Positions 1 through 56,534 of a DNA stretch of 64,000 nt are shown piece by piece. The notes beneath the pieces were generated by a model. That model ran no database searches. It was not told the origin of the DNA and saw nothing but the letters and a program-made list of their open reading frames with translations. This stretch comes from Escherichia coli (lineage in GTDB: Bacteria; Pseudomonadota; Gammaproteobacteria; Enterobacterales; Enterobacteriaceae): the NCBI RefSeq assembly GCF_003018255.1, contig NZ_CP027440.1; one strand, written 5' to 3'. The stretch's first letter is position 1, and every line of letters begins with the position of its first letter. A program made the position numbers and the translations under genes.

Positions 1-225
1 ACTGTTGGTGACTATGTTGCCAGCCATCAGCGAGAAGTTTCGGGGCGGATTATCCATCTTCATGCCTGGCACGTACCCGACTTCCACGGGACGTTACAGG
101 CACATGAACATCAGGCGCTGGTCTGGTGCTCACCTGAAGAGGCGCTGCAATATCCGCTGGCCCCTGCTGACATTCCATTATTAGAGGCGTTTATGGCTTT
201 ACGCGCCGCCAGACCAGCGGATTAG
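1..225 (+). CDS. nudG: CTP pyrophosphohydrolase NudG (Nudix), C-terminal part; 5' end lies outside the window
   Basis: Frame 1 reads ...GDYVASHQREVSGRIIHLHAWHVPDFHGTLQAHEHQALVWCSPEEALQYPLAPADIPLLEAFMALRAARPAD then TAG at 223-225; matches recalled NudG C-terminus. Overlaps convergent ynjH by about 35 nt. Confidence 0.75.
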   Translation, partial: TVGDYVASHQREVSGRIIHLHAWHVPDFHGTLQAHEHQALVWCSPEEALQYPLAPADIPLLEAFMALRAARPAD

Positions 226-463
226 TGCTAAGGTTTTTGTCATCCTGTTGGCATTGCAGCAGTATTCCTTCGGCTTTAATTACCGCCCCTTCAGAATAAT
301 TTTGATCCTGATAAACGCAGCACTGAGTACAGGGCTGCGCTGACTGCCCGCCTGAACTGAACACTTCTGGCGGTACGTTTACCTCCACGTCCGGACGATA
401 ATGCGGGTTAGCCAGTGCAATTATTGGAAATGCTAATACTACGGCGAACAATGCTCGACTCAC
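191..463 (-). CDS. ynjH: DUF1496 secreted protein YnjH (90 aa, N-terminal signal peptide)
   Basis: Track ORF 191..463; hydrophobic N-terminus MSRALFAVVLAFPIIALA; position upstream of gdhA as in E. coli. Confidence 0.8.
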   Translation of the reverse strand: MSRALFAVVLAFPIIALANPHYRPDVEVNVPPEVFSSGGQSAQPCTQCCVYQDQNYSEGAVIKAEGILLQCQQDDKNLSTNPLVWRRVKP

Positions 464-8998: not shown

Positions 8999-9640
8999 AT
9001 GCACCCTCGCGCCCTGTTACTGGTCGATTTACAAAATGATTTCTGTGCTGGTGGCGCGCTCGCCGTGCCGGAAGGTGACAGTACGGTGGATGTCGCTAAC
9101 CGCCTGATTGACTGGTGCCAGTCGCGCGGTGAAGCGGTTATCGCCAGTCAGGACTGGCACCCGGCGAATCACGGCAGTTTTGCCAGTCAGCACGGTGTAG
9201 AGCCTTATACGCCAGGCCAACTCGACGGTTTGCCACAAACCTTCTGGCCAGATCACTGTGTGCAGAACAGTGAAGGCGCACAATTACATCCGTTACTGAA
9301 CCAAAAAGCGATCGCAGCGGTGTTCCATAAAGGCGAAAATCCTTTAGTTGACAGTTACAGTGCCTTTTTTGATAACGGCCGTCGGCAGAAAACCACGCTC
9401 GATGACTGGTTACGCGATCATGAAATCGATGAATTGATCATTATGGGTCTGGCTACTGACTATTGCGTGAAGTTTACCGTGCTGGACGCGTTACAGTTAG
9501 GTTATAAGGTTAATGTGATTACCGATGGTTGTCGTGGCGTGAATATCCAGCCACAGGACAGTGCGCACGCGTTTATGGAGATGTCAGCAGCTGGGGCAAC
9601 GCTATATACGCTGGCAGATTGGGAAGAGACGCAGGAGTAA
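8999..9640 (+). CDS. pncA: Nicotinamidase/pyrazinamidase
   Basis: Start at MHPRALLLVDLQNDFC gives 213 aa; isochorismatase-fold catalytic residues. Confidence 0.92.
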   Translation: MHPRALLLVDLQNDFCAGGALAVPEGDSTVDVANRLIDWCQSRGEAVIASQDWHPANHGSFASQHGVEPYTPGQLDGLPQTFWPDHCVQNSEGAQLHPLLNQKAIAAVFHKGENPLVDSYSAFFDNGRRQKTTLDDWLRDHEIDELIIMGLATDYCVKFTVLDALQLGYKVNVITDGCRGVNIQPQDSAHAFMEMSAAGATLYTLADWEETQE

Positions 9641-9660
9641 TATTAGTTGGATTCATCTCT

Positions 9661-9691
9661 GGCCTACATTTCCTCAATGACATTGTAGGCC
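9661..9691. other. Inverted repeat (8-bp stem GGCCTACA / TGTAGGCC, 15-nt loop) in the pncA-yeaC junction
   Basis: Read directly from ggcctacatttcctcaatgacattgtaggcc; no T-run follows, so not a canonical terminator. Confidence 0.3.
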
Positions 9692-9800
9692 AGGTAATAC
9701 TTGTTAGTGTTGCATTTAACCTACTCGCAGCTAAAACACGACATCCGAACAAGTCTATTTGCCCTCCCTTAATAACAGGCTTAAATACTAGACAACTCAT

Positions 9801-10073
9801 TCACTTAAACATGGCAATAGGCTTTGCTGAGATACCAAAATCTTCTTTTAACTGTTGTTTGCTCTTCATGACCATCTGACCATTTGTGTCAATTGTCATA
9901 TGCTGTGCTTCGGTATTATTACGGGCTTGCCACAGCATCACCAGTTGCAGGCAGTTCTCTTTTTGTTCCTCGGTCAACGCAACGCCATCAGGCCATTTCC
10001 CCAGTTCAACGGCGGTCGACAAACGCTGGTATACCTCAGGCGTCATGCTGTTGATAATGTCATCAAGATTCAT
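9801..10073 (-). CDS. yeaC: DUF1315 protein YeaC
   Basis: Start at MNLDDIINSMTPEVYQRL gives 90 aa; directly downstream of msrB. Confidence 0.85.
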   Translation of the reverse strand: MNLDDIINSMTPEVYQRLSTAVELGKWPDGVALTEEQKENCLQLVMLWQARNNTEAQHMTIDTNGQMVMKSKQQLKEDFGISAKPIAMFK

Positions 10074-12883: not shown

Positions 12884-13737
12884 TCACACCATATCCAGCG
12901 CAGTTTTTCCTTTTGGTGCCGGATATGCCTTATCCAGCATAGCTAATTCCGCTGATGAAAGTTCGACCTCAAGCACAGCCGCATTTTGTTGGACATGGGT
13001 AATCGTGGCCGCTTTTGGAATCGCCATCACACCCTGATGGCTGATTACCCACGCCAACAATACTTGTGCCGCGCTGATATTGTGAGCATGTGCAATTTCG
13101 TTGACTACCGCGTTTTTTAACAGCCCATTGCGCAACCGCCCGGCCTGGGCTAACGGACTGTAAGCCATCACCGGCATCTGCTGTTTCTGGCACCAGGGAA
13201 GTAGATCGTACTCAATCCCTCGTGAACCGAGATGGTAAAGCACCTGATTAGTGGCACACTGATTCCCCCCGGCAGCTGCCAGAGTTCCTGCATATCGGCA
13301 TAATCAAGGTTAGAAACGCCCCAGCGGCGGATTTTTCCCTGGGCGATCAATTTTTCCATCGCTGCGACAGTCTCTTCAAAAGCGAAACTGCCAGACCAGT
13401 GTAATAAGTAGAGATCGAGATAATCAGTATTGAGACGGCGTAAACTGGCTTCGCATGCATTTATCGCTTTTTGCCCGCCAGCATTCCACGGATAGACTTT
13501 AGAGACGAGAAAGACGTTCTCACGCAGGCCGGTTAATGCTTCCCCAACCACCATTTCGGCACCGCCATCGGCATACATTTCGGCGGTATCAATGAGGGTT
13601 AAACCGAGTTCAATGCCCGCGCGTAGTGCAGCAACTTCTGTTTTACGCTGACTGGCATCTTCGCCCATATACCATGTTCCCTGCCCTATGGCTGGCAGTG
13701 AGACATCGCCACTAAATTGAATCATTTTTTGTTGCAT
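12884..13737 (-). pseudogene. yeaE: Aldo-keto reductase YeaE, disrupted by a frameshift (or sequencing error) in a C6/G6 homopolymer
   Basis: Two adjacent minus-strand ORFs in different frames (13168..13782 and 12884..13243) together cover one roughly 284-aa AKR; frames switch at the homopolymer at 13265-13270. Confidence 0.7.
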
Positions 13738-13826
13738 TGCTTCCTCCCAGGTATTGCACCACCGTAATGCAAAACAGGGCATGACGCCCTGTTTTTATGC
13801 ACAAAATGCCCTGGAAAAATGCATTA

Positions 13827-21674: not shown

Positions 21675-22178
21675 ATGACTGAAATGGCTAAAGGAAGCGT
21701 GACGCATCAGCGGTTAATCGCTTTATTATCACAAGAAGGTGCTGACTTCCGCGTCGTTACCCATGAAGCGGTAGGTAAATGTGAAGCGGTGTCAGAAATT
21801 CGTGGCACCGCTTTAGGCCAGGGGGCTAAGGCACTGGTATGTAAAGTCAAAGGCAATGGTGTAAATCAACATGTTCTGGCGATCCTCGCGGCCGATCAAC
21901 AGGCCGATCTGAGCCAACTCGCCAGCCATATAGGCGGATTACGCGCTTCGTTGGCCAGCCCGGCGGAAGTCGATGAACTCACAGGCTGTGTCTTCGGCGC
22001 GATCCCCCCTTTCAGCTTCCATCCAAAACTCAAACTGGTTGCCGATCCCCTACTCTTCGAACGATTTGATGAAATCGCCTTCAATGCAGGCATGCTGGAT
22101 AAATCCGTTATTTTGAAAACCGCGGATTATTTGCGCATTGCGCAACCAGAACTGGTCAATTTCCGCCGCACTGCGTAA
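21675..22178 (+). CDS. yeaK: YbaK-like aminoacyl-tRNA deacylase YeaK
   Basis: 167-aa ORF of the YbaK/ProX deacylase family. Confidence 0.88.
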   Translation: MTEMAKGSVTHQRLIALLSQEGADFRVVTHEAVGKCEAVSEIRGTALGQGAKALVCKVKGNGVNQHVLAILAADQQADLSQLASHIGGLRASLASPAEVDELTGCVFGAIPPFSFHPKLKLVADPLLFERFDEIAFNAGMLDKSVILKTADYLRIAQPELVNFRRTA

Positions 22179-22283
22179 CTAGCCTGTCCGTTCGATAAGA
22201 AGAACGGACAAAACCAGCACAACAGCAATGGCAAAAAACGATGACGTGATAATCAGTGTCTCGACGAACATTTGATCGTTCAT
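22179..22283 (-). CDS. yoaI: Small membrane protein YoaI (34 aa)
   Basis: Minus-strand ATG..TAG encoding [34 protein letters not shown]; below the ORF-track size cutoff; stop abuts the yeaK stop. Confidence 0.55.
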
Positions 22284-22452: not shown

Positions 22453-22899
22453 ATGTTTGATGTCACTTTGCTGATCCTGCTCGGGTTAGCTGCGCTGGGC
22501 TTTATCAGTCATAACACCACTGTCGCCGTTTCAATTCTGGTGTTAATCATTGTCCGCGTCACACCGTTAAGCACCTTTTTCCCGTGGATTGAAAAACAGG
22601 GGCTAAGTATCGGGATAATCATTCTGACGATTGGCGTTATGGCTCCCATCGCCAGCGGGACGCTACCGCCCTCAACCCTGATTCACTCGTTTCTGAACTG
22701 GAAATCGCTGGTGGCAATTGCAGTCGGCGTTATTGTCTCCTGGCTGGGGGGGCGCGGCGTGACGTTAATGGGCAGCCAGCCGCAACTGGTCGCCGGGCTG
22801 CTGGTGGGCACTGTTTTGGGCGTGGCGCTGTTTCGCGGCGTACCGGTTGGCCCGCTTATTGCCGCGGGTCTGGTTTCGCTGATTGTGGGGAAACAGTAG
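22453..22899 (+). CDS. yeaL: UPF0756 inner-membrane protein YeaL
   Basis: 148-aa hydrophobic ORF. Confidence 0.88.
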
Positions 22900-23677
22900 T
22901 TAATCCCGCAATATATCGGCCTGGCGTTTGCCCCAGGCCTTTCTTAAACATAGTAATAAAGGCCGTTGTTGAATCATACCCCAGCGTATGAGCAACTTTC
23001 TGTACAGTATCGCCTTTCACTAATCCCTGAAGCGCCATAATCAGCTGTAACTGCTGACGCCACTGGCGAAAACTCACCCCCGTCTCTTTCACTATCAGTC
23101 GGGCAAGATTGCGTTCACTCATCGCAAAAAAGCGAGCCCATTGCCCCAATGACCCCCACTCGACGGGCTCTTTCGCCATCATCTCCACCATCGCGCGGAT
23201 TTTAGGATGAGAAGAAACGGGTAGGTGCAGCTGTTGTTGTGGCTGCTGAGGGAGTTCATCAAACAGGACCTGAATTAATCTGCGGGTCATCGGCTCAGCA
23301 CGCTGAGTCGTCGTCCTGTTTGCCAGGGTTAAAATTAATTCCCGGCATAAGGGCGATATTTTCAATGTGCAACAGGTTGTCGGCATTGTCACTGCGCTGG
23401 GTTCGATAAACAGAAAACAGAGTTCAGCGTTAGCTGTCACTTGATTGCTATGTTCCACCCCTCCCGGTATCCAAACCGCATATTGTGGCGGCACCATCCA
23501 CAAAGCATTTTCCACCGTACAGGTAATTGCACCATGTAGTGCCAGTATCAACTGTCCTTTGCGGTGCTGATGTACAGGACTGGTTAACTCATCCGTTCCG
23601 GCGTGAATACAAAATGCGACCGCGGCTTCATGGTGTCGGTCGGGTTCATAGCCATTGAGATTCAACCTGTGCATCAT
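22856..23677 (-). CDS. nimR: AraC-family regulator NimR (YeaM)
   Basis: 273-aa ORF with cupin-like N-terminus and C-terminal AraC HTH; 3' end overlaps yeaL by 44 nt. Confidence 0.88.
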
Positions 23678-36334: not shown

Positions 36335-36360
36335 AAAAAAAACGCCGGATTAACCGGCGT
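36335..36360 (-). terminator. Rho-independent terminator of fadD
   Basis: On the minus strand: gacgccgg-ttaat-ccggcg followed by TTTTTTTT. Confidence 0.75.
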
Positions 36361-36379
36361 CTGACGACTGACTTAACGC

Positions 36380-38065
36380 TCAGGCTTTATTGTCCACTTT
36401 GCCGCGCGCTTCGTCACGTAATTCTCGTCGCAAAATTTTTCCGACGTTAGATTTCGGTAACTCATCACGAAACTCCACCAGCTTCGGTACTTTGTAGCCC
36501 GTGAGCTGACGGCGGCAAAAAGTCACCAGTGACTCTTCGGTAAGTGATGGATCTTTTTTCACAACGAAGATTTTCACCGCTTCGCCACTGGAGCCAGAAG
36601 GTACGCCAACAGCCGCGACTTCCTGTACGCCAGGATGCTGCATGACGACATCTTCAATCTCGTTGGGATAGACGTTAAAACCGGAAACCAGAATCATGTC
36701 TTTTTTACGATCGACAATACGCAGGAATCCTTCTTCATCCATCACCGCGATGTCGCCAGTGTGTAACCAGCCATTTTTGATGATTTCATCGGTAGCATCC
36801 GGACGCTGCCAGTAACCCAGCATCACCTGCGGTCCTTTGACACAAAGCTCACCTGGTTGACCCGGTGGTACTTCGTTGTCGTCGTCATCCACCAGTTTGG
36901 CTTCCGTCGACGGCACCGGCAAACCGATGCTACCACTATGATAATCAATATCATACGGGTTAACGCTGACCAGCGGCGCACACTCGGTCAGGCCATAACC
37001 TTCCAGCAGATACTGCCCTGTCAGTTTCACCCAACGTTCTGCCACCACTTGCTGAACAGGCATCCCACCGCCTGCGGAAAGGTGCAGACTGGAGAAATCC
37101 AGCTGCTGGAACTCTTTATTGTTCAGCAACGCATTGAATAAGGTGTTAACGCCAGTGATAGCGGTAAACGGATATTTCGCTAACTCTTTTACCAACCCTG
37201 GAATATCGCGCGGGTTAGTGATAAGCAGGTTCTGCCCACCCAGTTCGATAAACAGCAGGCAGTTAATGGTCAGTGCAAAAATGTGATAAAGCGGCAGCGC
37301 CGTCACCACCAGCTCTTTGCCCGGATGCAACAGCGGACCATAGGTCGCGTTAACCTGTTCCAGGTTCGCCAGCATATTGCGGTGAGTCAGCATCGCGCCT
37401 TTCGCCACACCAGTGGTACCGCCGGTGTATTGCAGGAAAGCTAAATCTTCCGGCACCAGTTCGGGTTTGACGTACTGCATCCGGTAGCCGTTGTGCAGGG
37501 CGCTACGAAATGAAATGGCATCTGGCAGATGGTATTTCGGCACCAGACGCTTGATGTATTTAACAACAAAATTGACTACCGTGCCTTTTGCCGTAGATAG
37601 CTGATCGCCCATACGGGTCAGAATTACGTGCTGAACGGCGGTTTTATCAACCACTTTTTCCAGAGTGTGGGCAAAGTTAGACACGATAACAATCGCCGAT
37701 GCGCCGCTATCGTTAAGCTGATGCTCAAGTTCACGCGGGGTATACAACGGGTTAACGTTTACGACAATCATCCCGGCACGCAAAATGCCAAACAGCGCCA
37801 CCGGATATTGCAATAAATTAGGCATCATCAACGCAACGCGATCGCCTTTCTTCAGTCCCAACCCTTGTTGCAAATAAGCGGCAAACGCGCGACTGCGTTC
37901 TTCCAGTTTGCGGAAGGTCATCACCTCCCCCATATTCACAAACGCGGGTTGATCGGCGTAGCGCGCGACCGACTGCTCAAACATATCTACCAGAGATTGA
38001 TAACGGTCAGGGTTGATCTCCGTCGGAACGTCCGCGGGATAACGGTTAAGCCAAACCTTCTTCAA
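36380..38065 (-). CDS. fadD: Long-chain fatty acid-CoA ligase FadD
   Basis: TTG start at [14 protein letters not shown] gives 561 aa; AMP-binding motifs. Confidence 0.93.
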
Positions 38066-53764: not shown

Positions 53765-53900
53765 GTTAAGGTTGCGCCCTCATTTGGGGAGTAGCCGATT
53801 TCCAGATTCCGGAAATGTACGTGTCAACATACTCGTTGCAAAACGTGGCACGTACGGACTGAACACTTTCAGTCAGGCGAGACCATATGCACATCAATCG
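53765..53900 (+). ncRNA. yybP-ykoY-type manganese riboswitch in the mntP leader
   Basis: Contains UUUGGGGAGUAG and GGCGAGACCA-like segments typical of the yybP-ykoY motif within the 5' leader of mntP. Confidence 0.55.
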
Positions 53901-54004
53901 CTATGCCTGCATGAACGCGAAAACCATCGCGGTTTGTCGTTCATGTATGCATGTTTGCTGGGGGCGATGATGTGTTTTATGGATACCCCGGTCAGGACGT
54001 TGTC

Positions 54005-54571
54005 ATGAATATCACTGCTACTATTCTTCTTGCGTTTGGTATGTCGATGGATGCATTTGCTGCATCAATCGGTAAAGGTGCCACCCTCCATAAACCGAAA
54101 TTTTCTGAAGCGTTGCGAACCGGCCTTATTTTTGGTGCTGTCGAAACCCTGACGCCGCTGATCGGCTGGGGAATGGGCATGTTAGCCAGCCGGTTTGTCC
54201 TTGAATGGAACCACTGGATTGCGTTTGTGCTGCTGATATTCCTCGGCGGGCGAATGATTATTGAGGGTTTTCGTGGCGCAGATGATGAAGATGAAGAGCC
54301 GCGCCGTCGACACGGTTTCTGGCTACTGGTAACCACCGCGATTGCCACCAGCCTGGATGCCATGGCTGTGGGTGTTGGTCTTGCTTTCCTTCAGGTCAAC
54401 ATTATCGCGACCGCATTGGCCATTGGTTGTGCAACCTTGATTATGTCGACATTAGGGATGATGGTTGGTCGCTTTATCGGCTCAATTATTGGGAAAAAAG
54501 CGGAAATTCTCGGCGGGCTGGTGCTGATCGGCATCGGCGTCCAGATCCTCTGGACGCACTTCCACGGTTAA
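54005..54571 (+). CDS. mntP: Manganese efflux pump MntP
   Basis: Start at [19 protein letters not shown] gives 188 aa. Confidence 0.9.
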
Positions 54572-55377
54572 TAAGAACGCTGCCAGAGGTGAATATTAAA
54601 GTCCGTCTGGCAGTCGAACACTTCTTTTGCTGCCAGTGTTTGCCAGACTTCTGGCTTCGCACGCCAGGCAAACGGCGTCATCTGCAATAATGCGACGGCT
54701 TCATCACCGCGAAGACGCATCGGATAACACAACTCATCACTCTGCTGTAATGTAAAACCTTCGAGTTGTTCTGCATGTGGTGCATGAAGATGTACTTCAT
54801 TGTAAATCAGCCCCTTCAGCTCCATCAAATGTCGCGGTCCCGGCGTGGCAGTAATGACCCAACCGCCAGGCTTCACTACTCGCGCTAATTCTTCTGCTTT
54901 ACACGGCGCGTAAATACGTATTATGGCGTCCATACTGGTATCGGAAAACGGCAAACGGTGGCTGGAAGCAACACAAAAAGTGACCTGCGGATAGCGTTTC
55001 GCCGCCGCTTTTATCGCAACCTTCGAAACATCCAGACCAAACGTGGTGATTTCGGGCAACGCATCGGCAAATGCGTGTGTGTAATACCCTTCACCACAGC
55101 CAATATCCAGCACCGCCGTGGCCTTTTCATCAAGCCGTTCCCGCAGTTGGGCGACAATTGCATCACGCAGCGGCTGATAATGTCCGGCATCTAAGAATGC
55201 GCGGCGTGCTTGCATCATTTCCGCGCTGTCGCCCGGATCACGAGACCGTTTATGCTGAACGGGCAGCAGATTGACATACCCTTCTTTCGCCATATCAAAC
55301 TGATGTCGCTGGGGACAGATATAGCTGTTTTTTTCACGCGAAAGAGGCTGATGGCAAAGTGGACAGGAAAACGACAT
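54568..55377 (-). CDS. rlmA: 23S rRNA m1G745 methyltransferase RlmA
   Basis: 269-aa ORF with N-terminal Cys4 zinc motif and SAM-binding GCGEGYY. Confidence 0.92.
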
Positions 55378-55470
55378 GACAACTCCGGCAGGATACTAAA
55401 GGCCGCAAGTGTAACGCGAATCACGCGGCGGGCAAATATCCGAACGACTGGAGCGAAGATAAAGCAAAGT

Positions 55471-55497
55471 AAAAAGCCTCGCATTCGACGAGGCTTT
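55471..55497 (-). terminator. Rho-independent terminator of cspC
   Basis: On the minus strand: agcctcg-tcgaatg-cgaggct followed by TTTTT. Confidence 0.75.
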
Positions 55498-55542
55498 ATA
55501 GCGAGATTGAAGCGTATTCACACTTCAGATCAGTGGATTCGA

Positions 55543-55752
55543 TCAGATAGCTGTTACGTTAACAGCTGCCGGACCTTTCTGACCGTCCTGAATTTCGAAC
55601 TCAACGTTCTGACCTTCAGCCAGAGTTTTGAAACCATTACCCTGGATAGCAGAGAAGTGTACGAACACGTCTTTGCTGCCATCAGCCGGAGTAATGAAGC
55701 CAAAACCTTTAGACTCGTTGAACCACTTAACCTGACCTTTAATCTTTGCCAT
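55543..55752 (-). CDS. cspC: Cold-shock-domain protein CspC
   Basis: 69-aa ORF with RNP motifs KGFGFI and VFVHF. Confidence 0.95.
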
Positions 55753-55764
55753 TTGAAAAATTCC

Positions 55765-55908
55765 TTAGATTGTTTTCTTCGCCCGCAGGCATAACATAGA
55801 TAAAACTGACACATTACTGCATGAGGCACCAATATAAGGCTCGGCAGAGAAGCGGTATTCAACGTCAACGTGTTTACTCAGGACTTCTTTACTGAAAATG
55901 CCACACAT
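55765..55908 (-). CDS. yobF: Small protein YobF (47 aa)
   Basis: Minus-strand ATG..TAA encoding [47 protein letters not shown], 12 nt upstream of cspC. Confidence 0.7.
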
Positions 55909-56534
55909 AAACAGAACTGTACCTCGTTTAACCCGAAATCTGTTATCACATACAACGTTAATTATGGCAAGCCATTTTTAAACATGTCTCGATCAGACGC
56001 ACAAATCTCGATACGTCTTCCACTTTTTTTGCACACTTATGCAACGGAATACGCGCCGATATATCATTGTGCTTAACCTTGCCAGTTCAGGCAGATACTT
56101 AAACTGACGTATTTTCTAACATAGTTCAATAAGTTCAGTTGTTCCAGGCCAGTGGGAGAAGTTATTACATAGTGCGTGCAATATCACATTTTCTGCTATG
56201 CAATGAATAAAAAGTTATATCACTTTTTCTCATAAAACAGTCAGTTAACGGCTATCGATCACCCCAAAGAGAAGTCAATCGCCAAAGGTATTGTAAATTT
56301 AAAATAAGAAAAATTGATGAATGCGCAAAAAAATCAAGAGAGAAACGTTTCGCTAATAAATAATACCACGCTTAATCACAAATCCGATGTAAACATCCTA
56401 ATAAATTAATGGGCTAAATATCTTTTTCTGATATCCCGTTACGCAAATAAATAATATGATAATTATTTGAAGTCAGACCAGAGTTTTAATTTGAAGCAGT
56501 TGCACCATGACAGTGCGTATAATCAGGATGAATT

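Follow-up and report, generated by a model that had tools for sequence, protein, structure and literature searches.

The window analysed here is a 64,000-nucleotide stretch of the Escherichia coli chromosome that extends from nudG to proQ, and it contains three pairs of convergent genes whose coding sequences share their 3' ends. The first pair consists of yeaL (22453–22899, plus strand), which encodes a 148-amino acid DUF441 inner-membrane protein (Pfam DUF441, residues 7–145), and nimR, also named yeaM (22856–23677, minus strand), which encodes a 273-amino acid protein of the AraC family with Pfam AraC_binding and HTH_18 domains, the latter ending at residue 255. NimR has been characterized as an AraC-family repressor of nimT and of its own gene (PMC5934670). 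The two genes have 44 nt in common (22856–22899), corresponding to the last 14 codons and the stop codon of yeaL on one strand and to the stop codon and last ~14 codons of nimR on the other. The second pair is formed by the 3' portion of nudG, which is cut by the start of the window (1–225, plus strand; NUDIX domain ending at approximately residue 125 of 135), and ynjH (191–463, minus strand; 90 amino acids, DUF1496 extending to residue 89), with 35 nt shared at 191–225. In the third pair, mntP (54005–54571, plus strand), the gene for a Mn2+ exporter, meets rlmA (54568–55377, minus strand) over the 4 nt at 54568–54571; the shared bases are the palindrome TTAA, so that TAA is the stop codon of both genes.

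These lengths were proposed in a sequence-only reading of the window, and all three were confirmed. The coordinates of the yeaL/nimR overlap followed exactly from the open reading frame calls, with the nimR stop codon being the first in-frame stop. Window coordinates of annotated genes were obtained by BLAST of each annotated gene of E. coli JNE23-011, since small indels separate the window from that genome. The JNE23-011 RefSeq annotation contains the same three overlaps as the window, and they are identical in the RefSeq annotation of K-12 MG1655. Misassigned stop codons, which would have undone this description, were ruled out by Pfam matches for all six proteins and by the agreement of the K-12 RefSeq and PGAP annotations, and terminators upstream of the overlaps, which would have done the same, were not found there. 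The pairs are thus real genes with correct stops that share 3' coding nucleotides. An annotation artefact, in which a stop codon or a gene had been miscalled and the overlap did not exist, has some precedent in that many long convergent overlaps in published surveys were 3'-extension artefacts (PMC2478687). In the present case, however, the stop codons leave no room for doubt, strong Pfam matches exist for the two members of every pair, the two annotations concur, and the solved structure of NudG (2rrk) spans residues 1–135 and so reaches the last residue of the protein. The overlaps, at 4–44 nt, are also all below the 60-nt length deemed suspicious in the surveys (PMC2478687, PMC4161906), from which they otherwise differ in nothing material. 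We consider an artefact to be scarcely credible.

The number of overlaps is not unusual. A total of 75 convergent coding overlaps has been reported for E. coli (Huvet & Stumpf 2014, PMC4161906), which corresponds to about one per 62 kb and to an expectation of ~1.03 per 64 kb; the three observed (Poisson P(≥3) ~0.09) are no more than chance would give. The window contains 14 convergent pairs, and tight packing is the local norm. The genes yeaK and yoaI abut at 22178/22179 with a gap of 0 nt, pdeD and yoaE are separated by 3 nt (48342/48346), and yeaO and yoaF by 21 nt (25357/25379). The yeaK-yoaI, yeaO-yoaF, and pdeD-yoaE pairs have also been listed among the convergent excludons of MG1655 (PMC12288877).

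Among 5,426 complete genomes of E. coli, 5,413 matched a 2-kb probe around the yeaL/nimR overlap, the match in JNE23-011 being at 100%. Over the full 64 kb, the window and JNE23-011 are 99.2% identical with five small gaps. An IS200C copy present in the htpX-prc interval of JNE23-011 is missing from the window at ~61055, a difference of ~705 bp. The yeaE gene, a single gene of 284 amino acids in JNE23-011, is split in the window into overlapping open reading frames at 12884–13243 and 13168–13782 (minus strand), which looks like a frameshift and would mean that the gene is a pseudogene in this strain or that its sequence contains an error. Eight genes that lie between pncA and yeaC in K-12 (ydjE to ydjL, ~9 kb) are represented in both the window and JNE23-011 by a spacer of only 160 nt (9640–9801). 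The gene called cspE in the PGAP annotation of JNE23-011 is cspC in K-12. A Mn2+ (yybP-ykoY) riboswitch precedes mntP at 53778–53874 (plus strand); it scored 41.9 bits against an Rfam gathering threshold of 45 and is thus missed by default. A 40-amino acid "hypothetical protein" annotated by PGAP in JNE23-011 (53887–54008, plus strand) overlaps the start of mntP; its open reading frame is altered by an indel in the window and lacks annotation in K-12. The only Rfam matches at gathering level in the window were the sroD sRNA and a match to the cspA-thermoregulator family that spans the cspC/yobF leader (36336–36421 and 55468–55928, both on the minus strand), and the gathering-threshold scan of all three gene junctions revealed no known RNA.

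The two longer overlaps share the same layout. On the YeaL side, the overlap falls in the conserved domain, given that DUF441 extends to residue 145 of 148, whereas on the NimR side it covers residues 260–273, beyond the end of HTH_18 at residue 255 of 273. The COOH-terminal tail of NimR (residues 257–273; 22859–22909, minus strand) lies beyond the helix-turn-helix domain and differs in length among the 58 species compared. It runs for 17 codons after the domain before reaching a stop, a value near the expectation for random sequence. For nudG/ynjH, the NUDIX domain ends at ~125 of 135 residues and DUF1496 extends to residue 89 of 90. As judged from these domain boundaries, an apparently dispensable tail of one gene overlies the conserved end of the other in both pairs.

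We scanned species-representative genomes with YeaL and obtained 80 Enterobacteriaceae loci, 58 of which bear nimR; the yeaL-type open reading frame was intact in all 80. Overlap lengths were computed from the first in-frame nimR stop codon for the 58 nimR-bearing loci and the window, and they ranged from –127 to +45 nt. The commonest length was 17 nt, found at 28 loci (Klebsiella, Enterobacter, Raoultella, Kluyvera, Leclercia, and the divergent "E. coli" E69), followed by 44 nt at 14 loci (the window and 13 of Citrobacter). The remaining overlaps were 45 nt (Yokenella), 21 nt (Salmonella diarizonae), 20 nt (three loci), and 6 nt (two Trabulsiella loci). The genes are exactly adjacent in S. 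arizonae (0 nt), and overlap was absent at single loci with values of –1 and –4, at five Buttiauxella loci (–5), and at two further loci (–122 and –127). In most genera, the MFKK motif of NimR lies at a constant 46 nt from the yeaL stop codon. The nimR gene was absent beside an intact yeaL at 20 of the 80 loci. Four lineages, namely E. albertii, E. whittamii, "E. coli" SCPM-O-B-8794, and Escherichia sp. E1V33, lack nimR-nimT and have yeaO within ~85–100 nt of yeaL, and in Escherichia sp. MOD1-EC7003 only a remnant of nimR was found.

The difference between the two commonest lengths can be traced to a single position. In the 17-nt state, the nimR stop codon is a TAA or TGA antisense to yeaL codons 144–145 (NTT-A or NTC-A), and yeaL codon 145 is ATT or ATC (Ile). 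The window and K-12 instead have GTG (Val) at this codon. The site that toggles, at 22883–22885 and read by nimR on the minus strand, is TTG in the window (antisense CAA, Gln) and TTA or TCA in species with yeaL Ile145 (antisense TAA or TGA). The overlap is thus lengthened from 17 to 44 nt because Ile145Val in YeaL removes the antisense stop codon of nimR, which becomes nine codons longer and ends instead at a TAA antisense to Leu135-Ile136. Rogozin (2002) and Fukuda (2003) reportedly attributed tail-to-tail overlaps to loss of a stop codon or to 3' extension of one partner. The change in YeaL is a textbook case of this process, the accepted origin of such overlaps, in which a frame that has lost its stop runs on to the next one within the neighbor, as described in later surveys (Pallejà et al. 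2008, PMC2478687; PMC4161906).

Selection for dual coding would imply that the 44 nt in common encode two functional COOH-termini and that the overlap is maintained for the sake of both. The occurrence of the 44-nt state in the window, in K-12, and at 13 Citrobacter loci is what speaks for such a scenario. The coordinates place codon position 1 of each gene opposite position 1 of the other, position 2 opposite position 3, and position 3 opposite position 2. For one set of yeaL codons compared throughout 19 loci, including five with a shorter overlap or none, third-position entropy was 0.81 bits within the shared stretch, where 11 of 12 codons vary, and 0.89 bits elsewhere (84% variable). Synonymous sites of yeaL are therefore as variable within the overlap as outside it. 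In this register of frames, every such change also replaces an amino acid of NimR, whose tails, which lie outside the Pfam domain, vary between species in both length and sequence. Neither reduced synonymous variation nor conservation of both products was thus apparent for yeaL/nimR. Given that yeaL synonymous sites are free in the overlap and that NimR tails differ, the shared stretch shows no dual-coding constraint, and we regard selection of this type as very improbable.

We instead favor a mechanism in which the shared coding is a by-product of close packing. The DNA-binding domain of NimR ends ~19 nt from the yeaL stop codon, a spacing that is fixed across most Enterobacteriaceae, and the nimR frame would run on through a dispensable tail until antisense yeaL happened to supply a stop codon. 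Point changes in the last codons of yeaL would then shift the nimR stop, with the overlap toggling among ~0, 17, 20, and 44 nt. Alternatively, selection for a tight junction itself may account for the constant distance of 46 nt and for the conservation of synteny.

A feature of a different kind lies just beyond the yeaL stop codon, within nimR. On the plus strand, 19 nt past the yeaL stop, the sequence GGCCTGG-CGTTTGCC-CCAGGCC (22918–22939) is predicted to form a hairpin of 7 bp, six of which are GC pairs, with an 8-nt loop and a folding energy of –14.1 kcal/mol. It is followed by a U-tract, TTTCTT (22940–22945, plus strand), which is antisense to the NimR Lys-Lys codons just upstream of those for GLGQTPGR; this last peptide is encoded by the other strand of the hairpin itself. 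The region 22918–22945 therefore has the makeup of an intrinsic terminator, a GC-rich stem-loop and U-tract placed after a stop codon, although neither its loop of 8 nt nor its interrupted U-tract is optimal for this function. A terminator pattern scan yielded 2 matches, compared with 2.1 expected in shuffled sequence, and the match is thus not significant alone.

Comparison among species was more informative. Pairing that is conserved beyond the constraint of coding was found only in Escherichia, Citrobacter, and Salmonella, with 20 of 22 species of these genera having a hairpin at –14 kcal/mol or better, compared with 3 of 37 other genera (Mann-Whitney P = 6.5e-8), in which the encoded peptide is identical or closely related. 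Synonymous codons drawn at random from an approximate E. coli codon table gave this stability in only 2% of re-encodings. The 22 sequences of the clade aligned over 256 nimR codons with no indels. Mean third-position entropy for the gene was 1.08 bits in this set, whereas the four wobble sites in the stem (Gly247 GGC, Leu248 CTG, Pro252 CCA, and Gly253 GGC) showed values of 0–0.27 bits and the three in the loop showed values of 0.99–1.93 bits. The conservation of the stem wobble sites was significant on resampling of Gly, Leu, and Pro codons (P = 1.8e-4), and the stem-proximal codon for Lys246 was AAA in 21 of the 22 species. This pattern indicates that, in the Escherichia/Citrobacter/Salmonella clade, the hairpin is an RNA element maintained by selection on synonymous sites of nimR.

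The hairpin is most simply regarded as probably the intrinsic terminator of yeaL or a 3' stabilizer of yeaL mRNA. The stem is palindromic and folds in nimR mRNA as well, and selection could instead act on the structure of nimR mRNA or on pausing of RNA polymerase. The only stem changes in the clade occur at two Citrobacter loci and are C-to-T substitutions on the nimR strand, which retain G-U pairing in nimR mRNA and produce mismatches in yeaL mRNA. Two cases are a slender basis for choosing between the strands as the target of selection. Neither the Term-seq supplements of PMC7815308 nor the TERMITe supplements of PMC12207403 contain a mapped 3' end for yeaL, nimR, nudG, or ynjH, an absence that low expression may explain.

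We also considered the hairpin as a bidirectional terminator and rejected this reading, given that the structure lies upstream of the nimR stop codon (22856–22858) and that its minus-strand flank, GAUAUAUUG, is not U-rich. Since the hairpin precedes that stop codon, termination of nimR at this site would yield a non-stop mRNA. The hairpin resembles the overlapping bidirectional terminators of Ju et al. (2019), as these are presented in a later preprint (bioRxiv 10.1101/2022.10.23.513370), in that it lies in a doubly transcribed convergent region. It differs from them, as far as that account describes them, in being located within the nimR coding sequence, so that it does not end both transcripts after their stop codons.

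A search of the minus strand between 22200 and 24000 revealed no intrinsic terminator for nimR, and antisense-yeaL RNA folded no more stably than shuffled sequence. The RNA downstream of the nimR stop codon contains 41–44% C, with a C/G ratio of 1.4–1.9 over ~150 nt. This C-rich composition suggests that nimR is probably terminated in a Rho-dependent manner, with transcription reading into C-rich antisense yeaL RNA until it would be stopped by Rho, as has been mapped for rlmA into mntP. The yoaI gene (22179–22283, minus strand) is on the same strand as nimR, beyond antisense yeaL; an unterminated nimR transcript would cross yeaL and continue through yoaI, which might constitute the geometry of a non-contiguous operon. 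Rho-termination regions have been mapped antisense to yoaI and to pdeD (PMC7815308).

For rlmA, Term-seq placed the primary 3' end at K-12 position 1906214 (minus strand), 37 nt past the rlmA stop codon and inside mntP (PMC7815308, supplementary file 1). On coordinate mapping, this position corresponds to 54531 of the window, and the rlmA mRNA therefore overlaps mntP by 41 nt. A hairpin of 9 bp, GCGTCCAGA-GGA-TCTGGACGC (54537–54557, minus strand), identified by folding here, lies within the mntP coding region, and the 3' end is located 6 nt after it, with no U-tract. A Rho-termination region with a score of 10.2 has been reported alongside this end (PMC7815308). The arrangement of rlmA in mntP thus resembles the Rho-dependent termination into a convergent neighbor, with a hairpin-protected 3' end, described by Adams et al. 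(eLife 2021, PMC7815308). Unlike that of rlmA, the proposed Rho-dependent termination of nimR is drawn from C-rich composition.

The sequence-only reading had further held that such arrangements force antisense read-through. This is correct, being unavoidable for any full-length mRNAs, and it is already documented by published RNA-seq and Term-seq data. Both nudG-ynjH and yeaL-nimR are named among the 165 convergent excludons of MG1655 (Sanmartin et al., NAR 2025, PMC12288877), having been detected in at least 50% of 58 RNA-seq samples; mntP-rlmA is not part of that published excludome. A terminator was predicted inside the neighboring transcription unit for 146 of the 165 convergent excludons (PMC12288877), as is the case here for the yeaL hairpin. 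In contrast to the overlaps described here, these excludons were defined by RNA-seq coverage and not by coding overlap, and the study contains no pair-specific functional data for the present genes. If yeaL ends at the hairpin and U-tract (22918–22945), its transcript would be complementary to nimR mRNA over ~90 nt.

Such complementarity raises the question of a functional convergent excludon, in which overlapping 3' ends would have been selected and transcription of one gene would suppress the other through polymerase collision or through cleavage of the duplex by RNase III. Regulation of this type would tie YeaL, a membrane protein, to NimR, a regulator concerned with nitroimidazoles, and, likewise, NudG to YnjH. 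Consistent with this possibility, two of the three pairs belong to the MG1655 excludome, most members of which have terminators embedded in the neighbor (PMC12288877); synteny is higher among excludon pairs generally; the geometry of the junction is fixed in most genera, as reflected by the position of the MFKK motif of NimR; and the hairpin appears to be under selection. On the other hand, the length of the overlap is labile and is zero or negative at some loci, and nimR-nimT is missing next to an intact yeaL at the 20 loci mentioned above, including those of E. albertii and E. whittamii. No functional link between YeaL and NimR is known, with NimR being a single-target regulator of nimR/nimT (PMC5934670); we found no pair-specific reports of reciprocal expression in the literature; capture of double-stranded RNA failed to validate convergent excludons generally (PMC12288877); and mntP-rlmA lies outside the excludome. 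The comparative data, namely the labile length, the loss of the nimR-nimT cassette, and the lack of dual-coding constraint, argue against coupling of the partners' expression through the coding overlap itself, which the sequence-only reading had raised as a possibility, and we judge a functional excludon to be unlikely.

A narrower variant would place the function in the hairpin. This element would then be a selected dual-use structure, encoding GLGQTPGR on one strand and serving termination or stabilization of yeaL mRNA on the other, and the yeaL/nimR duplex of ~90 nt would be a meaningful antisense link tuned by the 17- and 44-nt variants. If true, this would connect a nitroimidazole-responsive repressor with an uncharacterized DUF441 membrane protein by way of antisense RNA. 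We hold this combined scheme to be more doubtful still than a functional excludon.

We therefore return to the interpretation favored above, to which we assign a probability of roughly 80%: the overlaps would be ordinary, already annotated products of neutral stop-codon movement in tightly packed convergent gene pairs, with the shared coding being incidental and yeaL likely ending at the hairpin and U-tract. The overlaps themselves are already known, in that standard K-12 annotation includes them, a published map of convergent transcripts already lists two of the three pairs, and drift of stop codons is textbook knowledge; they carry little weight as a discovery. The new element is a modest addition: within the helix-turn-helix codons of nimR, a hairpin resembling a terminator is conserved at synonymous sites. 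For the biology of these bacteria, the substitution of Val for Ile145 in YeaL provides a clean worked example of how a single substitution adds nine residues to a neighboring protein, and the hairpin may represent a candidate terminator kept by synonymous-site selection within the DNA-binding codons of another gene, and thus a small test case for the sharing of sequence between coding and termination.
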